64,000 nucleotides of DNA, taken from positions 128,969-192,968 of the forward strand of contig CAZTCI010000003.1 of the NCBI GenBank assembly GCA_964612665.1, written 5' to 3'. Shown here one piece after another: positions 15,752 through 58,135 of the stretch (position 1 is its first letter; the number at the start of each line of letters is the position of its first letter). This stretch comes from an uncultured Planctomycetales bacterium (GTDB lineage Bacteria; Omnitrophota; Gorgyraeia; Zapsychrales; JAHFFX01). The position numbers and the translations under genes are program-made. The notes beneath the pieces are model-generated. The model saw only the letters and a program-made list of their open reading frames with translations. It did not search any database and was not told the DNA's origin.

Positions 15752-16351
15752 TTAATTGCCTAACGCGGTGGCGATTTGATCTAACAAACGGTTGGCGTAA
15801 TGGTCGTTACGGTAGCCGCGTAATTGTTTCAAAGGCAACGCGGTGATCACGCCGTAACGGATTTCTACTTCAGTGGCGTTTTGTAACGAACGGACATAAA
15901 CATTAAGCTGAGTGTAACGCGAATACAAAAACATGGAAGTTTCTTTAAGTTCAGTCAAGATGATCGTCTGTTTGGAGGCAGGATGTCGTTCACTTTGAAC
16001 CTCTTCATACACCGATGGGTCGGTCGTTTTGGCAATTTTCCAATTATTGTTTTTTAAAACTTTTTTTACAACTCTAAGAGTTTGATCATAACTGGCATAG
16101 TATTCACGTGTGTAAGGATTTTTGTCTTGAAGATACTGGGACATTGGAGTGCTGACGCAGCTACTTAACGATAGAAGAACTGGAATATATAGAATTCTCC
16201 GTCGCCAAGCTAAACTCCAAATCCTAAATACCAAATTACAAATAATTATCAAATTCCAATAACCAAAATTCCAAACCGCTGAATTCTTCGAAAAATTTGA
16301 TAATTGAAATTTGTTTGCGATTTGGGATTTGAGATTTGAAAATTGATTCAT
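15752..16351 (-). CDS. Hypothetical lipoprotein; the start is uncertain
   Basis: A signal peptide RRRILYIPVLLSLSSC carries a lipobox. The annotated N-terminal ~45 aa are the translation of the repeat element at 16200-16350. Confidence 0.4.
   Translation of the reverse strand: MNQFSNLKSQIANKFQLSNFSKNSAVWNFGYWNLIIICNLVFRIWSLAWRRRILYIPVLLSLSSCVSTPMSQYLQDKNPYTREYYASYDQTLRVVKKVLKNNNWKIAKTTDPSVYEEVQSERHPASKQTIILTELKETSMFLYSRYTQLNVYVRSLQNATEVEIRYGVITALPLKQLRGYRNDHYANRLLDQIATALGN
16200..16350. repeat. CAAAT/ATTTG-rich imperfect palindromic intergenic element, copy B
   Basis: One half reads ccaaattacaaataattatcaaattccaataaccaaaattccaaacc. The other reads aaaaatttgataattgaaatttgtttgcgatttgggatttgagatttg. 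It is similar to copy A. Confidence 0.5.
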
Positions 16352-28589: not shown

Positions 28590-29279
28590 TTATTGCGGCA
28601 GATAAAATAATGGATTATCTGCCCGAGCATTTCTTCTTATTTCAAAATGTTCAAACGCTAAATCGCCTTTTTTACCAACTTGCGCAACTGGCTTCCCTTG
28701 GTCGACTGCCTCATCCAAACCAACGAGCAGTTTGGAATTCTGCGCATAAACTGAATGATATCCGTCGGAGTGGGCAACAATAACGGTATAAGCATAGCCG
28801 TTTAAATAATCGGCAAAAACAACTTTGCCGGAACGGGCCGCTTTCACAACCTCACCTTCACTGGCCTGAATATCAATGCCTCGGTTGACATCCAAGCCTT
28901 TATGATTTCCAAAATAAGAAATAACAGTTCCCTTGATTGGCCATTGAAAGTCATTATCCTTAGGTCCTTTTTCAGGGATAGTGACCGTCCGGACTTCATC
29001 AGCGCCAGGAATAAAAATCAGTTGGTCTTTTTCAATTTTGGCGACATTAGGAATATTGTTGCTTTTGATGACTTCGTCAATACCGACCCCATACGTCTGT
29101 GCGATCCGCCAAAGCGTTTCACCGGGATGAACTTTGTGGTAAACACCCTTGCCTACCGGCTTGGTTGCCGTGGGCAAGACAGCTGTTTTCGTTGCCGACG
29201 GGGGTGTTGTGGTCGCGCAACCGGCGATGATTGAAACTAAGCCCAGCAAAATTCCGGTCAGGATTTTTTTAGTGCTCAA
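28590..29279 (-). CDS. LysM plus degenerate M23 (LytM) lipoprotein, NlpD/EnvC-like
   Basis: A lipobox IIAGC is present. The LysM segment is GETLWRIAQTYGVGIDEV. The M23 fold lacks the catalytic HxxxD and HxH residues. Confidence 0.75.
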   Translation of the reverse strand: MSTKKILTGILLGLVSIIAGCATTTPPSATKTAVLPTATKPVGKGVYHKVHPGETLWRIAQTYGVGIDEVIKSNNIPNVAKIEKDQLIFIPGADEVRTVTIPEKGPKDNDFQWPIKGTVISYFGNHKGLDVNRGIDIQASEGEVVKAARSGKVVFADYLNGYAYTVIVAHSDGYHSVYAQNSKLLVGLDEAVDQGKPVAQVGKKGDLAFEHFEIRRNARADNPLFYLPQ

Positions 29280-29360
29280 TTTTATACCTTTAATTTCATG
29301 CTGGGTTTTTCCTTCACGAAAAATTTAGTCTTTTAATCAAAGGAAAAACCTTAGCATTAA

Positions 29361-29391
29361 ATTTTGTCATCCCTTGGGACGACAAAATTTA
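29361..29391 (-). terminator. Hairpin terminator downstream of tRNA-Gly
   Basis: The sequence aaattttgtc-atcccttgggac-gacaaaattt has a perfect 10-bp stem, followed by T-rich sequence on the minus strand. Confidence 0.4.
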
Positions 29392-29463
29392 AGCGAGGGA
29401 CGGGGATTGAACCCGCGACGTCAAGCTTGGGAAGCTTGCATTCTACCACTGAATTACCCTCGC
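29392..29463 (-). tRNA. tRNA-Gly (anticodon CCC)
   Basis: The sequence folds by hand into a cloverleaf: GCGAGGGTAATTCAGTGGTAGAATGCAAGCTTCCCAAGCTTGACGTCGCGGGTTCAATCCCCGTCCCTCGCT. The acceptor is 7 bp, the anticodon loop is TTCCCAA, and the T-loop is GTTCAATCC. CCA is not encoded. Confidence 0.8.
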
Positions 29464-29481
29464 ATATTCGTTGGTCCGTTG

Positions 29482-29546
29482 TTCGTTGTTCGGGGAATTC
29501 ATGTTTTTATTTAAAAAAATAGAAGAACGAATTCCACGAACAACGA
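29482..29546. repeat. Interrupted hairpin between thiE and tRNA-Gly
   Basis: The stems ttcgttgttcg / cgaacaacgaa (11 bp) and ggaattc / gaattcc flank an AT-rich loop. Confidence 0.4.
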
Positions 29547-29575
29547 AAGCAGAGACTGTTGAATGATAACATTTG

Positions 29576-29645
29576 AACGCGAATTCTCGCGAATTGCACA
29601 CAAATATTCGCGAATATTAGTGTGCAATTCGCGAGAATTCGCGTT
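29576..29645. repeat. 70-bp near-perfect palindrome upstream of tRNA-Gly
   Basis: The 26-bp arms are aacgcgaattctcgcgaattgcacac and gtgtgcaattcgcgagaattcgcgtt. They flank a self-palindromic core, aatattcgcgaatatt. There is one mismatch overall. The TCGCGA and GAATTC sub-motifs recur. Confidence 0.6.
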
Positions 29646-29687
29646 AACCTTTCGATTTTTCAACAATCTCAAAGCACGAACGACGAT

Positions 29688-30317
29688 TCAACTCATGACC
29701 TTCAAAAATCTTTTAGTTGCCTCTAACGGCGAAGGCGCTTCACAAATCGCCCGGCAAACAGCGATACGATTAATCCCTTGCGTTTTCAAAATCTGCGCTT
29801 TTTTTAAATCAATCCCGCCGATCGCAAAAATAGGCAGCGGCGTTTTTCGAATCGCTACTGTTAGCAAATTTAAATCCATCGGCTCACGGTCTGGTTTGGT
29901 TTTCGTTTTAAAGACTGAACCAAACCCGATGTAATCAGCACCCTCATGCACGGCGTTTTTTAGCTGCGGCCATTTCTGACAAGAAGTCCCGATAATCGCT
30001 TGAGGTCCTAAGATTTTTCTCGCCAGCGAAACGGGTAAATCATCTTGTCCGACATGAACTCCGTCGGCGCCTGAAGCCGAGGCCAAATCCGCGCGGTCAT
30101 TTAAGATAAAAGGCACGCGGCCTTTTAACAATTTAACGAGCTTCTTAGAAAAATCGAAAATTGCTTTGGCCGAACTCTGTTTATCGCGAAGCTGTATAAT
30201 ATCAATACCGCCGGCAACCGCCTGCCGCGCGGTTTCAAACAACGCCTCGAAACCCGCCACATCTCGGTCTAAAATCAAATAAATCTTAGCGCCCAACAAT
30301 TTTTGTTTCGACTGCAT
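29688..30317 (-). CDS. thiE: Thiamine-phosphate synthase
   Basis: The 209-aa product has a TIM barrel. The motifs are IIQLRDK and GADGVHVGQDD. Confidence 0.85.
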   Translation of the reverse strand: MQSKQKLLGAKIYLILDRDVAGFEALFETARQAVAGGIDIIQLRDKQSSAKAIFDFSKKLVKLLKGRVPFILNDRADLASASGADGVHVGQDDLPVSLARKILGPQAIIGTSCQKWPQLKNAVHEGADYIGFGSVFKTKTKPDREPMDLNLLTVAIRKTPLPIFAIGGIDLKKAQILKTQGINRIAVCRAICEAPSPLEATKRFLKVMS

Positions 30318-54832: not shown

Positions 54833-56123
54833 AAAGAAGCATAGGGTTAAAGGCCCTCAGCTGTAAAAAAAACATATCGCGTGTTTTTCGGCTAAACAGG
54901 TTTGACAAAGAAGTCGCGAAGAATTGGGAAATGACCGTCGCGATAGCTGCGCCGTTGATTCCCCATTTAGGGATTAAGAAAAGATTTAAAATGATATTAA
55001 AAACGGCGCCAGCCACCGCATAAATCAGCGTATAGATCTGAAGTTTTTCGGTGATCATCCATTTGCTCCGGGCAACGCCCAAGAACACAAAAATCCCGGC
55101 CCACACATGAATCACCAAAACCTGCGCCGCCGGCAAATAAGCCTGCCCAAATAAAATCTTAATTAACGGGCCCGCCAAAAACATTAAACTCAATGAAAAC
55201 CCAATTGCCAGCCACACGAGAACGGAAAATAAAACTTCCAAACGGTTTAAATACAAAACCTCATCTCTTTTCTTGGCGTTCACAATCGCCGGGAACAAAG
55301 ACGCGGTAACCAACATGGGGATAAAATAAAAGCCCTCACTAATTTTGACCGCAGCAGAGTAATATCCGACGGCAGCAACGCCCAGCATATTCTTGATCAT
55401 GATCTGATCAATCCGCATATAAATAGAAATCGCAACGCCTGACAGCGCGAGCGGCCACGATTCTCTAAACAACTGAGCAAGTCTATCCCAGTTAAAAAGC
55501 AATTTGATGGGAGCTACTTTTTTAAGCTCATAAAGAAAAATGAGACCAATACAAATCAACACCGCTTCCAGCAATAAGACTTCGGCGAACGCTATAAGCG
55601 GGGCCTTGATATAAATGAGAAAAATATAAATTAACGATGTAACGAACAATGAAAACAGTTGCGCATAAGTAACATACTTTGAAGCCACCTTAGACTGAAA
55701 ATAGAAATCAATAACATCCGCCGTCTGAAAAAACATCCGCAACGACATAATCCAAACCATAACCGCCGTATAAAAGGGGATAGAAAAAATCCAAATACAT
55801 AAGCTGATAAGAATGAACGCCAAAAAACTTCCAATCAACTTTAAAAAAAAAGCCTCCGTTAAAATCTGGTTTTTTGCCCCGGCATGATGAACCAGATCCC
55901 TGACCACAACCGCTTCCAGTCCCAAATCTGAAAAAAGATTAAACAGAAAAACAAAGCTTAAAGCATAACTGTACAACCCGAAACGCTCCGGCCCGAGATA
56001 GCGAACGACCATCGCCCAAACAGTCACAACCATTACCGCGCGGATAATTTTTTCTAAAAAAAGAAATCCCGTATTGCTCGCGTATTTTTGAAATCCGGAA
56101 GACTGTAAAAGCGTCTTGATCAT
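54813..56123 (-). CDS. Wzx-type oligosaccharide flippase (polysaccharide biosynthesis / MOP family)
   Basis: The protein is 436 aa with about 12 TM helices. Confidence 0.7.
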   Translation of the reverse strand: MIKTLLQSSGFQKYASNTGFLFLEKIIRAVMVVTVWAMVVRYLGPERFGLYSYALSFVFLFNLFSDLGLEAVVVRDLVHHAGAKNQILTEAFFLKLIGSFLAFILISLCIWIFSIPFYTAVMVWIMSLRMFFQTADVIDFYFQSKVASKYVTYAQLFSLFVTSLIYIFLIYIKAPLIAFAEVLLLEAVLICIGLIFLYELKKVAPIKLLFNWDRLAQLFRESWPLALSGVAISIYMRIDQIMIKNMLGVAAVGYYSAAVKISEGFYFIPMLVTASLFPAIVNAKKRDEVLYLNRLEVLFSVLVWLAIGFSLSLMFLAGPLIKILFGQAYLPAAQVLVIHVWAGIFVFLGVARSKWMITEKLQIYTLIYAVAGAVFNIILNLFLIPKWGINGAAIATVISQFFATSLSNLFSRKTRDMFFLQLRAFNPMLLFDKSII

Positions 56124-57304
56124 CGTTTGGCGTAACGTTCTTTAGCTTGTTCGTAAATTTTCATCAAATATTCATAATTACGGCCGGGGGTGTAGTGGCT
56201 TTCATATTCTCGACGGGCTTCTTGGCCCATGAATGCCATTCTTTTTTTATCATTCAGGAATTTTTGAAGCTGCTTTGCTAAATCCGCTGCATTGCCTGTC
56301 TCAAACAGAAGCCCAGTTCTCCCTTCAGCAATATATTCTTTAATTCCATCGAGCCGACTCGCGATCACTGGCACACCATAAGAGAACGCTTCAACAATCG
56401 TGCGCGGAAAATTGTCGTGGCAGATCGACGGCACAACAACACACGCGGCAGATTTCAAATGACGAATATAATCTTCATCGGAACAATAGCCCAGGACTTG
56501 AACGCGTTTTAAATTTTCTTGAGCAACGGATTCTTTTATTTCCGTAAGGAGCGGACCTTCACCGATGATTTTCAAAGGGACATCCGGCAGTGAAGTCCAG
56601 GCCCTTAAAAGCACGCGCACACCTTTTTCTGCAGAAATGCGGCCGATGTAAAGTGCGTAACCTTGGTCATTTTCACGGCGGCCGTTTTGGTTTTCATAAA
56701 AATGCGGTTTGACGGTGACCTTTTCCGCTGGAATTCCCGCTTCGCCATGTTTGCGCCGGCTGAATTCCGTCGCCGTAATGTAACCGTCGATCAATTGGTT
56801 CCAAGTTCCTTTCTGCCAGTGCTTGTTTAACATCCGAACAACGAGCGCTGTAAAAAGTTTTGAACCTTTATAACAACCATACTTCACCCCGCGCCAGCGC
56901 GAATGATGCAGACATTCTTCACAATGCCGTCCCTCTCTTAAAAACAACGCATTAGCGCACATCAAACGGTAATTATAAAGACTCTGCACAACCGGGACCT
57001 TTGCGTCACGGCAGGCATAATAAACCGCGGGTGTCACCATAAAGAACGTATTGTAAACATGACAAATATCCGCGGCAAAACCTTTAAGAATGCCTTGAAT
57101 CTCATTGTAAGTCTTTTTGGACCAATCCATTTGAAGGATATGTCTTTGCTTTTCAAGAAAATTGTACTGATTAATTTCAGCGTTGCTACGTTCATATAAA
57201 TAAACCTCATGACCATGCCGTCGGAGTAATTCGCTTTCCGCCTGAAAAACAGCATCTTCGCCGCCGAATTGCTGATAGCGGTTGTGGACCATTAGGATTT
57301 TCAT
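56120..57304 (-). CDS. Glycosyltransferase family 4
   Basis: A GT-B C-terminal domain with EAFSYGVPVI-type motif is present. Confidence 0.8.
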   Translation of the reverse strand: MKILMVHNRYQQFGGEDAVFQAESELLRRHGHEVYLYERSNAEINQYNFLEKQRHILQMDWSKKTYNEIQGILKGFAADICHVYNTFFMVTPAVYYACRDAKVPVVQSLYNYRLMCANALFLREGRHCEECLHHSRWRGVKYGCYKGSKLFTALVVRMLNKHWQKGTWNQLIDGYITATEFSRRKHGEAGIPAEKVTVKPHFYENQNGRRENDQGYALYIGRISAEKGVRVLLRAWTSLPDVPLKIIGEGPLLTEIKESVAQENLKRVQVLGYCSDEDYIRHLKSAACVVVPSICHDNFPRTIVEAFSYGVPVIASRLDGIKEYIAEGRTGLLFETGNAADLAKQLQKFLNDKKRMAFMGQEARREYESHYTPGRNYEYLMKIYEQAKERYAKR

Positions 57305-57418
57305 AACTCGAAATTAAGGAGAGAGTTCTTCTTCGCTCTTATACTTTTGTGTAAGAGCTTCGAAGGAATTCCTGCGAAGCCCAAACATAAGAATATTTGG
57401 GCGAAGCAGAACTCCTCG

Positions 57419-58135
57419 CTACTCTTTAAAGAATTGAGTCTTATTCTTCTCAAAAACATCCTGTGCCGCTTGGAGATCAACCATACGGCCCAAATCAAAC
57501 CACATATCGTTCATCTCAAAGCAGTAAACGGACTGGTTGTTTTGTTTTATACGAAGCATCAATTCAGGCATGCCCAAAATTTCTTTGGAGCGGACAAATT
57601 CCGTGCATTGTTTATTGAGAACATTGATTCCTAAACTTAAAAAAGATTCCGCCTTCGGTTTCTCAACGTAATCCGTCATGAGCAAATTTTTATTAAAAGT
57701 GATGACGCCAAAATCGTTTTGCGTCACGCATTTCTTAACGGCAATCGTCGCCAGGCCTTTTCTTTTTTTGTGGAAGTCGAACAGACTGCGGAAATTTAAA
57801 TCGGTCAACGTATCACCGTTGATGACCAGAAAATTATCTTTCAGTTTTGGAATCGCTTTAAGCGCGCCGGCGGTCCCCAGCGGTTCGTCTTCACGCACGT
57901 AACGGATGGAAACGCCCCAGCGTTTTCCGTCGGCAAAATAAGCTTCAATCAATTCCGCCAGATGCCCGGTTGAAATCACAATATCGGTGATACCATAAAA
58001 TTTAAGCTGGCGGATGATAATTTCAGCGATGGGAAATTCACCGATTGGAATGAGCGGTTTGGGTAAAATCGTTGTGTATGGCCGCAAGCGCGATCCTTTT
58101 CCGCCGGCGAGAATGACCGCCTGCCAATTAGACAT
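57419..58135 (-). CDS. Sugar-1-phosphate nucleotidyltransferase
   Basis: The motif AVILAGGKGSRLRPYTTILPKPL is present. Confidence 0.85.
   Translation of the reverse strand: MSNWQAVILAGGKGSRLRPYTTILPKPLIPIGEFPIAEIIIRQLKFYGITDIVISTGHLAELIEAYFADGKRWGVSIRYVREDEPLGTAGALKAIPKLKDNFLVINGDTLTDLNFRSLFDFHKKRKGLATIAVKKCVTQNDFGVITFNKNLLMTDYVEKPKAESFLSLGINVLNKQCTEFVRSKEILGMPELMLRIKQNNQSVYCFEMNDMWFDLGRMVDLQAAQDVFEKNKTQFFKE

Follow-up and report, generated by a model that had tools for sequence, protein, structure and literature searches.

A 70-bp near-perfect palindrome between thiE and tRNA-Gly in an Omnitrophota genome is a copy of a repeat family built of phased octamers

Small palindromic repeats such as repetitive extragenic palindromes (REPs), Rickettsia palindromic elements (RPEs), and the miniature transposable elements with inverted repeats known as MITEs affect mRNA stability, termination, genome rearrangement, and protein sequences, and they are almost unstudied in uncultivated phyla. 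Eukaryotic foldback transposons, of kilobase size, carry inverted repeats made of short tandem subrepeats. ParR-parC, the omega heptads, and the P2 Cox boxes consist of 7- to 11-bp units, direct and inverted, at approximately one helical turn, and ribbon-helix-helix or winged-helix proteins polymerize along one face of them; on plasmids and phages, such arrays are neighbors of the partition, repressor, or excision genes to which they belong. The REPs have a terminal GTAG or CGTC tag next to an imperfect palindrome of 20-40 bp and are sometimes found within genes (PMC3733652), whereas the RPEs are in-frame, translated insertions in protein genes (PMC1779305; MITE review PMC10969869). The stoperators of cluster A mycobacteriophages are asymmetric repressor sites in short intergenic gaps, in one orientation and in some cases at a stop codon (PMC9283540). 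Here, we analyzed a 70-bp palindrome that lies between the gene for thiamine-phosphate synthase (thiE) and a tRNA-Gly gene in a stretch of 64,000 nucleotides (hereafter the window; positions 128,969 to 192,968 of contig CAZTCI010000003.1), from a bacterium deposited as an uncultured Planctomycetales and placed in the Omnitrophota by its GTDB lineage. This palindrome is a copy of a repeat family built of phased octamers, defined in this analysis and termed the "phased-octamer element." The family is seemingly undescribed: in the open-access literature, we found no published description of octamer arrays, of TTCGCGAA palindromes, or of repeats in Omnitrophota or the Planctomycetes-Verrucomicrobia-Chlamydiae (PVC) group.

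Octamer structure of the palindrome

The original prediction, made from the window sequence, had described a near-perfect palindrome with two exactly complementary 26-bp arms around a self-complementary 16-bp core, broken at a single position, and the measurements bore this out. The sequence at 29576-29645 reads AACGCGAATTCTCGCGAATTGCACACAAATATTCG followed by CGAATATTAGTGTGCAATTCGCGAGAATTCGCGTT, and its two arms (29576-29610 and 29611-29645) are 35 nt each, 97% complementary, and separated by a spacer of 0 nt. The 26-mer AACGCGAATTCTCGCGAATTGCACAC has exactly two matches in the window, at 29576-29601 on the plus strand and 29620-29645 on the minus strand, a result obtained in 0 of 100 shuffles; the core is located at 29603-29618, and the sole asymmetric pair is A/A at 29602/29619. 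Three TCGCGA hexamers were found where three had been predicted (29587, 29608, and 29629, a step of 21 bp); however, only two of the four GAATTC hexamers claimed are within the palindrome (29581 and 29635), and the other two (29495 and 29529) belong to a neighboring hairpin, HP2, outside it. When folded in silico, as the prediction had proposed, the palindrome gave -51.1 kcal/mol for the RNA form (z = -10.3) and -37.3 kcal/mol for the DNA form (z = -10.9). With a DNA hairpin of -37 kcal/mol and an AT-rich center, formation of a cruciform is physically plausible on these calculations. On the transcribed strand, the order is thiE, 42 nt, the palindrome, 112 nt, and tRNA-Gly, which places the palindrome upstream of the tRNA 5' end and agrees with the distance of approximately 110 bp first given; directly past the palindrome, this minus strand reads CAAATGTTATC.

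The whole palindrome resolves into eight octamers of the pattern CRCNRAT (mostly A/T-CGCGAAT), four forward and four reverse, and the central CGCG is common to the fourth forward and the first reverse unit. The asymmetry is located in the third unit, which is CACAAAT in the forward module (module A) and CACTAAT in the reverse module (module B); the CACTAAT variant occurs in other genomes too, and CACAAAT merely fits the degenerate pattern. Nowhere else in the window is there a phased chain of three or more CRCNRAT units. The EcoRI, NruI, and SspI hexamers arise from the units themselves (CGCGAAT+TC, T+CGCGA, and GAAT+ATT, respectively), and the restriction-site content follows from what octamers and spacers are composed of and is not the signature of a vector.

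The palindrome was reproduced in independent Logan assemblies of three sequencing runs, SRR12313477, SRR12313478, and SRR12313479. Two contigs (L001 and L002, from SRR12313478 and SRR12313479) enter from the thiE side, cross the center including the asymmetric pair, and end in the second arm, and a third (L138, from SRR12313477) begins at the center and runs through HP2, the tRNA, and the M23 peptidase gene. The contigs of the three runs thus approach from both sides, overlap over the center, and carry the asymmetric pair in the same orientation. Perfect palindromes of this kind break short-read assemblies such as the Logan contigs and yield spurious open reading frames (ORFs). The original prediction had raised the possibility of a vector or assembly artefact, and the many restriction-site-like hexamers and the short-read contigs that stop inside the palindrome could be read as signs of an artefact of assembly, of a cloning linker, or of sequencing. 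However, the hexamers are explained by the octamer composition, and the contig ends in the second arm are expected because k-mer assemblers break at perfect inverted repeats; in addition, the identical sequence was obtained from three runs and from both directions, the flanks are syntenic with those of relatives, and a blastn search of the whole spacer against plasmid and phage collections returned no match. Taken together, an artefact can be discounted with near certainty.

Copies of the family in other genomes and in viral contigs

The family module was defined as 41 bp with four A/T-CGC-K-AAT octamers at spacings of 10, 11, and 10 bp (mean 10.3), close to one turn of the helix. Two inverted sets of units (3+3 or 4+4) and several copies at unrelated sites of one genome were taken as further traits of the family. 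An exact 18-mer of the arm, which spans two units, was present in 51 contigs of a species-representative genome collection, compared with approximately 17 expected for a random 18-mer, and the matches came from Verrucomicrobiota, Planctomycetota, Omnitrophota, Chloroflexota, Nitrospirota, and other groups. Approximately half of these matches were flanked by more units at 9-11 bp, in many cases with direct units first and inverted ones after them. In the 18-mer loci, 152 pairs of units on the same strand were 10 bp apart, about one third of them forced by the query, versus 1 in 352 kb of control loci. The arrays were dense in Omnitrophota, with five in 4 kb of contig L017 and seven in 4 kb of contig L164, and these two contigs together supplied 14 four-unit modules with the 10-11-10 spacing. 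A profile of the 14 modules, built without the window sequence, matched the palindrome along the full model on both strands (29576-29616, plus, nhmmer E = 6.8e-9; 29645-29605, minus, E = 3e-10); the next best match in the window had an E value of approximately 0.9, and approximately 370 kb of other loci returned nothing but the window's own Logan copy. The contig L164 was reached by homology of an L017 protein, not by window DNA, and a profile of its modules alone matched module B with E = 4.8e-8 and module A with E = 4.6e-7. Conservation extended to positions that the search did not force, such as the A ahead of every core and C-N-A in the central spacer.

At the level of single modules, the nearest (L017 5131) was identical to the arm at 33 of 42 positions, the spacers TC and TGC included. 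The elements of L017 and L164 with four forward and four reverse units (4+4) align along the full palindrome and have loops of 14-22 nt and arms that are 73-85% complementary; among the copies compared, the window palindrome was the most perfect family member. An element of approximately 75 bp was found at two unrelated loci of one Anaerolineae metagenome-assembled genome (MAG; L004 and L035) and again in another Chloroflexota MAG, and no convincing, consistent target duplications were seen at the Anaerolineae copies. By a rough count over contigs with clear ORFs, arrays were far more frequent in gaps flanked by co-directional or convergent genes than in gaps flanked by divergent genes. Systematic scoring of arrays against stop codons was spoiled by spurious ORFs in high-GC contigs, and only clear individual cases were used. 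The 137 proteins encoded next to arrays carried 209 Pfam families, none of them recurrent, and included no transposase, neither a REP-associated tyrosine transposase (RAYT) nor another Y1 transposase; no integrase or regulator was shared among them either. Searches of Rfam at the gathering threshold identified only the tRNA in the window, with generic microRNA-hairpin models below threshold, and no family in 19 related loci.

Several arrays are located inside genes for radical-SAM/SPASM proteins. Two arrays in L017 lie within such an ORF, the frame of which is open throughout, up to the conserved C-terminal cysteine motif, and a paralogue of this protein is without the array segments. The homologues range from 318 to 427 residues; an alignment of 17 of them placed the variation in loops after EPYKYRG and DYPKYKI, and three had an extra insertion in the C-terminal region. 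Many homologues translate the units, AAC GCG AAT being read as N-A-N and ATT CGC GAA AAT TCG CG as I-R-E-N-S-R, and others of similar identity have unrelated sequence at the array position. The hypervariable loops of these Omnitrophota enzymes were observed to hold translated arrays (peptides NANIRESNANPREC and ISENSR) or other repeat-derived inserts. The enzymes are found in clusters resembling those for ribosomally synthesized and post-translationally modified peptides, together with PqqD, ScmC, peptidase U32, and an ABC transporter. Arrays occupy nearly all intergenic gaps of the radical-SAM/PqqD/ScmC cluster of L164, and the segment 10576-14648 of that contig holds seven arrays in approximately 4 kb, forward-only, reverse-only, or 4+4.

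The octamer was also arrayed in viral contigs. Three or more phased CGCGAAT units (21 specified bases) were present in 24 IMG/VR contigs (L139-L163), where chance expects far below one; the exact arm 18-mer had no match in viral contigs. The typical viral array is AACCGCGAATGRACGCGAATGRACGCGAAT, located in short intergenic gaps and in some cases starting at the stop codon of the upstream gene. Several contigs contain more than one co-oriented array, with three in L161, which is a Mu-like phage contig, and two each in L139, L141, L142, and L148. A Pfam and PHROG search of the genes beside viral arrays revealed nothing recurrent. We also noted a viral subgroup (L144, L145, L149, L155, L162, and reverse-complement counterparts) with TTGACAAGCC, (CCTCGCGAAT)x3, and a second repeat in tandem, for example (GGATCAAG)n; these repeats are upstream of a small conserved protein, in an iteron-like layout.

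Nested designs were seen as well. The viral contig L163 has two hairpin arrays of three forward and three reverse units nested within outer inverted CACAGAG arrays, and L037 shows the same design. Across the three loci concerned (L037 4480-4620, L163 2540-2680, and L163 5150-5290), a CGCGAAT array is enclosed by inverted arrays of another unit of approximately 10 bp, either ACACAGAT or CACAGAG, which suggests sister families with other units or insertion of such elements into each other's loops. Two further observations concern single contigs. In one MAG of the Anaerolineaceae (L010 520-600), an array of two units starts 11 nt past the 3' end of a tRNA gene and is the second tRNA-adjoining array. 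The scaffolds L015 and L049, both 21,021 bp and assigned to the genera Poseidonocella and Mangrovicoccus, have an identically flanked (CGCGAATTCT)x4 tandem repeat in common, and they may represent a shared plasmid or phage or cross-contamination.

The spacer between thiE and tRNA-Gly

The nearest ThiE proteins beyond the source genome were 57-62% identical, and one cluster of them is named Candidatus Omnitrophota. Through protein search and contig look-up, we reached four contigs syntenic with the window (L134-L137; ThiE 57-61% identical), whereas a metagenome scan for ThiE relatives yielded only sequences of at most 45% identity, useless for spacer comparison. The four contigs and the window share the gene order PFK, GmhA-like SIS, RfaE-type cytidylyltransferase, ThiD2, ThiE, tRNA-Gly(CCC), LysM/M23, ATPase_2, and metallophosphatase. 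Between the thiE stop and the 5' end of the tRNA, the relatives have 4, 22, 50, and 76 nt, compared with 224 nt in the window, and no long inverted repeats were found in L134-L137. In this comparison with the tRNA-Gly locus of related genomes, which the original prediction had proposed, the palindrome was absent from the spacer of all four syntenic relatives. Because the spacers of the relatives measure 4-76 nt and are devoid of long inverted repeats, the palindrome is, as judged from this sequence comparison, a lineage-specific insert, and HP2 and a further hairpin, HP3, are likewise extra DNA.

The conserved neighborhood contains no regulator gene, only metabolic and envelope genes. No sigma-70-type promoter and no intrinsic terminator were predicted in 29250-29800, in a scan that excludes Omnitrophota-type promoters, and the palindrome does not have the short G+C-rich stem-loop and U tract of an intrinsic terminator. 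The tRNA-Gly gene is most simply regarded as part of the thiE transcription unit, because the gap of 4 nt in one relative has no space for a tRNA promoter. Two other readings of the locus were rejected. An integrated island at the tRNA is contradicted by the gene order, which is conserved on both sides of the tRNA, and a replication origin or terminus by the cumulative GC skew, which is monotonic over the window.

Deletion of the palindrome together with one copy of its flank leaves a simple hairpin (12-bp stem, 17-nt loop) formed by the outer inverted repeat (Table 1). Because removal restores this hairpin, the palindrome apparently occupies the loop of an older one. The check for target-site duplications proposed in the original prediction gave a divided answer: the flanking 8-mers AACATTTG and AACCTTTC match at six of eight positions (empirical P ~0.009 at fixed offset), but this could be a chance match. 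An 8-bp target duplication (AACNTTT) around the palindrome is possible, and the flanks are suggestive only.

Table 1. Coordinates of the palindrome, neighboring features of the window, and related features of other contigs
Feature	Coordinates	Strand	Remarks
Palindrome	29576..29645	.	Two inverted 41-bp four-octamer modules with a 12-bp overlap (29605-29616) at the central CGCG
Module A	29576..29616	+	Cores CGCGAAT, CGCGAAT, CACAAAT, CGCGAAT at 29578, 29588, 29599, 29609; spacing 10, 11, 10; nhmmer E = 6.8e-9
Module B	29605..29645	-	Reverse cores at 29606, 29616, 29627, 29637; spacing 10, 11, 10; third unit CACTAAT; nhmmer E = 3e-10
Left flank AACATTTG	29568..29575	.	Possible target-site duplication; 6/8 identical to right flank
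Right flank AACCTTTC	29646..29653	.	Partner of possible target-site duplication
Outer 12-bp inverted repeat, left arm GAGACTGTTGAA	29552..29563	.	
Outer 12-bp inverted repeat, right arm TTCAACAATCTC	29659..29670	.	
Hairpin HP2	29482..29547	.	31-nt arms, 84% complementary; AT-rich loop; two GAATTC; between palindrome and tRNA
Hairpin HP3	29357..29392	.	17-nt arms, 94% complementary; abuts tRNA 3' end; absent from relatives
thiE (thiamine-phosphate synthase, PF02581)	29688..30317	-	Stop at 29688, 42 nt from palindrome
tRNA-Gly, anticodon CCC	29392..29463	-	Position kept in relatives
LysM/M23 peptidase gene	28590..29279	-	Downstream of tRNA; syntenic with relatives
Comparable 4+4 copies	L164 12437-12517; L017 5131-5222; L017 5929-6033		
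Omnitrophota radical-SAM/SPASM enzymes with hypervariable loops	L017 4693-5919; L164 10001-11059; L165 2020-3249		

Other hairpins surround the palindrome. HP2 is not made of octamer units and is absent from the relatives; it carries repeated motifs of the CGAACAACGAA type, and CACGAACGACGA (29675-29686), just after the thiE stop, is a copy of this motif that mirrors 29535-29546 about the palindrome. HP3 begins exactly at the 3' end of tRNA-Gly, where there is no U tract and no encoded CCA, and the gap between the tRNA and the M23 gene is only ~30-40 nt in the relatives. Elsewhere in the window, 16218-16331 is a 114-bp inverted repeat of CAAAT/ATTTG motifs spaced at 7-14 bp; it falls within the first 45 codons of the mechanically called minus-strand ORF 15752-16351, either as an in-frame insertion or as an intergenic hairpin with a mis-called start. 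A structured spacer of 92 bp at 57323-57414, with an outer stem around two inner hairpins, fills the gap between the co-directional minus-strand genes 56120-57304 and 57419-58135. Long intergenic hairpins are seemingly abundant in the source genome compared with its relatives. Neither these two repeats nor HP2 and HP3 have phased octamers, and they were ruled out as family members.

Interpretation and comparison with known systems

We propose that the palindrome is probably an interspersed palindromic element of the REP/RPE/MITE kind, non-coding and not a locus-specific regulator. Among the four candidates of the original prediction (a strong regulator operator array, a cruciform-forming element, a tRNA-proximal integration or recombination site, and a MITE-like remnant), the last is the only one that fits, with a palindrome absent in the four relatives, a module present in other Omnitrophota contigs, and a possible 8-bp duplication in the flanks. 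The element would have been inserted into the loop of the older hairpin, in a spacer that is very short in relatives, and it would be selfish or structural rather than a regulator of this locus. Two modules, inverted and fused at their common central CGCG, would give a 70-bp palindrome without a loop, the near-perfection of which may stem from a recent inverted duplication of one module or from its hairpin-templated correction. The probable thiE-tRNA co-transcript would carry a perfect hairpin of 26+6 bp. Stems of this type are classically known to act as 3' barriers and to be cut by RNase III, and the hairpin would be expected to serve as a 3' barrier for the thiE mRNA and as an RNase III-type site that parts the mRNA from the tRNA. 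The octamers would be the recognition units of a trans-acting protein that spreads or maintains the arrays.

Several observations weigh against this proposal. The closest relatives are distant (ThiE at most 62% identical), and an empty site is thus lacking; the flanking 6/8 repeat is compatible with chance; and no transposase or other mobilizing gene was found. The search for further copies gave a mixed result, since related modules exist in other Omnitrophota contigs, but neither the 26-mer nor the phased-unit search found a second copy in the window, the 64 kb of the source genome that these searches covered. The evidence for the family is partly non-independent, as L017 was found with the window's own 18-mer and L164 was reached via an L017 protein. 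Both co-transcription and the consequences at the RNA level are inferred. Moreover, conservation within the family is far stronger in the octamers than in the intervening spacers, and covariation is absent between the two arms of other copies; such octamer-specific conservation without covariation disfavors neutral copy-and-paste decay and suggests that the units are constrained as binding sites.

The last two observations bring forward a different explanation, in which the arrays are platforms on double-stranded DNA, and their A-CGC-K-AAT units are bound along one helix face by a conserved protein that may have a counterpart encoded by phages. The candidates would include a roadblock or stoperator-like factor, a nucleoid protein, and a DNA-wrapping enzyme such as gyrase, and the palindrome would be a symmetric site of high occupancy where the thiE transcription unit ends. 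Such binding would account for conserved units with variable spacers of 2-3 nt, for the 10-11-10 spacing with its mean of 10.3 bp, for the arms of other copies that lack covariation, for the recurrence of the same octamer in arrays of several phyla, and for the bias of array positions to gene 3' ends. It also accommodates the 24 viral contigs, a number far above chance, with their co-oriented arrays that in some cases start from the upstream stop codon, and the finding that a single operon holds forward-only, reverse-only, and mixed arrays, a pattern that speaks against an RNA signal tied to one strand. However, no candidate binder was identified, and no gene recurs beside arrays; the in-frame arrays, present or absent among homologues, resemble insertions more than placed sites; the window copy is absent from relatives; and the conservation of the units is partly forced by the design of the search. 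A binding platform is compatible with a mobile origin and not exclusive of it; we regard it as the main alternative, or complement, though an unlikely one. Extended to its widest form, it would describe a DNA signal common to several phyla: a conserved protein with phage-borne relatives would polymerize on helix-phased units at gene ends, in some genes, and across phage genomes, the protein or a partner would seed new arrays, and the palindrome would be the strongest, fully symmetric site. Its role could be that of a transcription roadblock or silencer, similar to a stoperator, or of a DNA-wrapping or topology site; we offer this version tentatively, as a possibility on the lower side.

The remaining explanations confine the palindrome to its locus. 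An operator or promoter for tRNA-Gly or thiE, bound by a dimeric or tetrameric regulator, would suit the dyad symmetry, the CGCG cores spaced 10/21 bp along one face of the helix, and the position ~112-113 nt upstream of the tRNA; but the palindrome is missing from the syntenic spacer (4-76 nt) of four relatives, the conserved neighborhood is without a regulator gene, no promoter-like site was found in 29250-29800, and the same modules are beside unrelated genes, mostly at 3' ends, and inside ORFs elsewhere. The operator array of the original prediction is thus very unlikely, although the octamers themselves may be protein-binding units. Equally local would be an accident, an inverted duplication or the perfection of a quasipalindrome without family or function, for which the 97% arm identity, the zero spacer, and the single copy in the window can be cited. 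An inverted duplication would account for the symmetry but not for the content of the arms, each of which is a full-length match to module profiles from other genomes (E 1e-7 to 1e-10) and shares spacer bases with L017 5131, and we consider an accident quite improbable. Direct and inverted units of ~10 bp resemble arm-type site arrays, and a tRNA gene is close by, as would be expected if the palindrome were the attachment or recombination site of an integrative element or another target of a site-specific recombinase. Against this, the element is found upstream of the 5' end of the tRNA instead of at the 3' end, the genes past the tRNA (LysM/M23, ATPase_2, and Metallophos) are exactly those of the relatives, no integrase or island was seen in the syntenic interval (the rest of the window was not annotated), and integron R/L boxes and the attC motif GTTRRRY are absent by inspection; the tRNA-proximal integration site is accordingly extremely unlikely. 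An apparent likeness of GCACACAA...CGCG...TTGTGTGC to protelomerase targets such as N15 telRL was also considered; a hairpin telomere or resolved site is improbable, as the left and right flanks are not alike and keep their synteny with relatives.

The design of the family is unusual in that octamers conserved and phased to the helix are combined with free spacers, and the same octamer recurs in viral contigs and in four phyla, namely Omnitrophota, Verrucomicrobiota, Planctomycetota, and Chloroflexota. Should the units be binding sites, they would belong to a widespread DNA-binding system that awaits identification; if the element is purely selfish, it offers a new model of how palindromic DNA spreads without a linked transposase.

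Comparison with described systems shows partial likeness to each. Similar to REPs, bacterial interspersed mosaic elements, and REP doublets forming hairpins (REPINs), the phased-octamer elements are short, non-coding, interspersed palindromes, often inverted pairs able to form long hairpins, and they are located mainly between co-directional or convergent genes, downstream of coding regions, and occasionally within genes, with an expected effect of the RNA hairpin on the upstream mRNA. Unlike REPs and REPINs, the palindrome, as read, ends without a GTAG or CGTC tag and has no single 8- to 9-bp stem of 20-40 bp in total; its arms are conserved octamers phased at 10-11 bp, and the octamer is common to several phyla. 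REPs are mobilized by RAYTs (IS200/IS605-like Y1 transposases), the genes of which the repeats typically flank, and no RAYT/Y1 transposase is present among the 137 array-neighboring genes.

With RPEs and with MITEs such as Correia/NEMIS and ERIC, which we set side by side by behavior and not by sequence, the family shares small, palindromic, ORF-less insertions that are present or absent at homologous sites, with members in frame and translated. A target duplication at the palindrome is possible and would be a further likeness, and terminal inverted repeats are present trivially, as the whole element is an inverted repeat. However, no parent insertion sequence with matching ends was found, and neither was a transposase beside arrays nor a plasmid or phage match, in contrast to MITEs; the copies do not look like decayed replicas of one master, since units are conserved and spacers are free, and the distribution of the arrays spans several phyla and viral contigs.

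The viral arrays are placed in the manner of stoperators, several per genome, in one orientation relative to the genes, and in some cases from the upstream stop codon, whereas stoperators are single 13-bp sites with a known repressor and the arrays are triplets or quadruplets of 8-bp units, which host chromosomes contain too, at a distance from prophages; the copy in the window, being symmetric, has no orientation. By analogy, the layout of direct and inverted phased units may be likened to the arrays of ParR, omega, and Cox, but the octamer arrays are dispersed without a gene linked to them and may fall within coding sequence. Finally, foldback transposons also build inverted arms from tandem units of ~10 bp, an analogy of architecture only, as they belong to another domain of life and differ in size range and mechanism.

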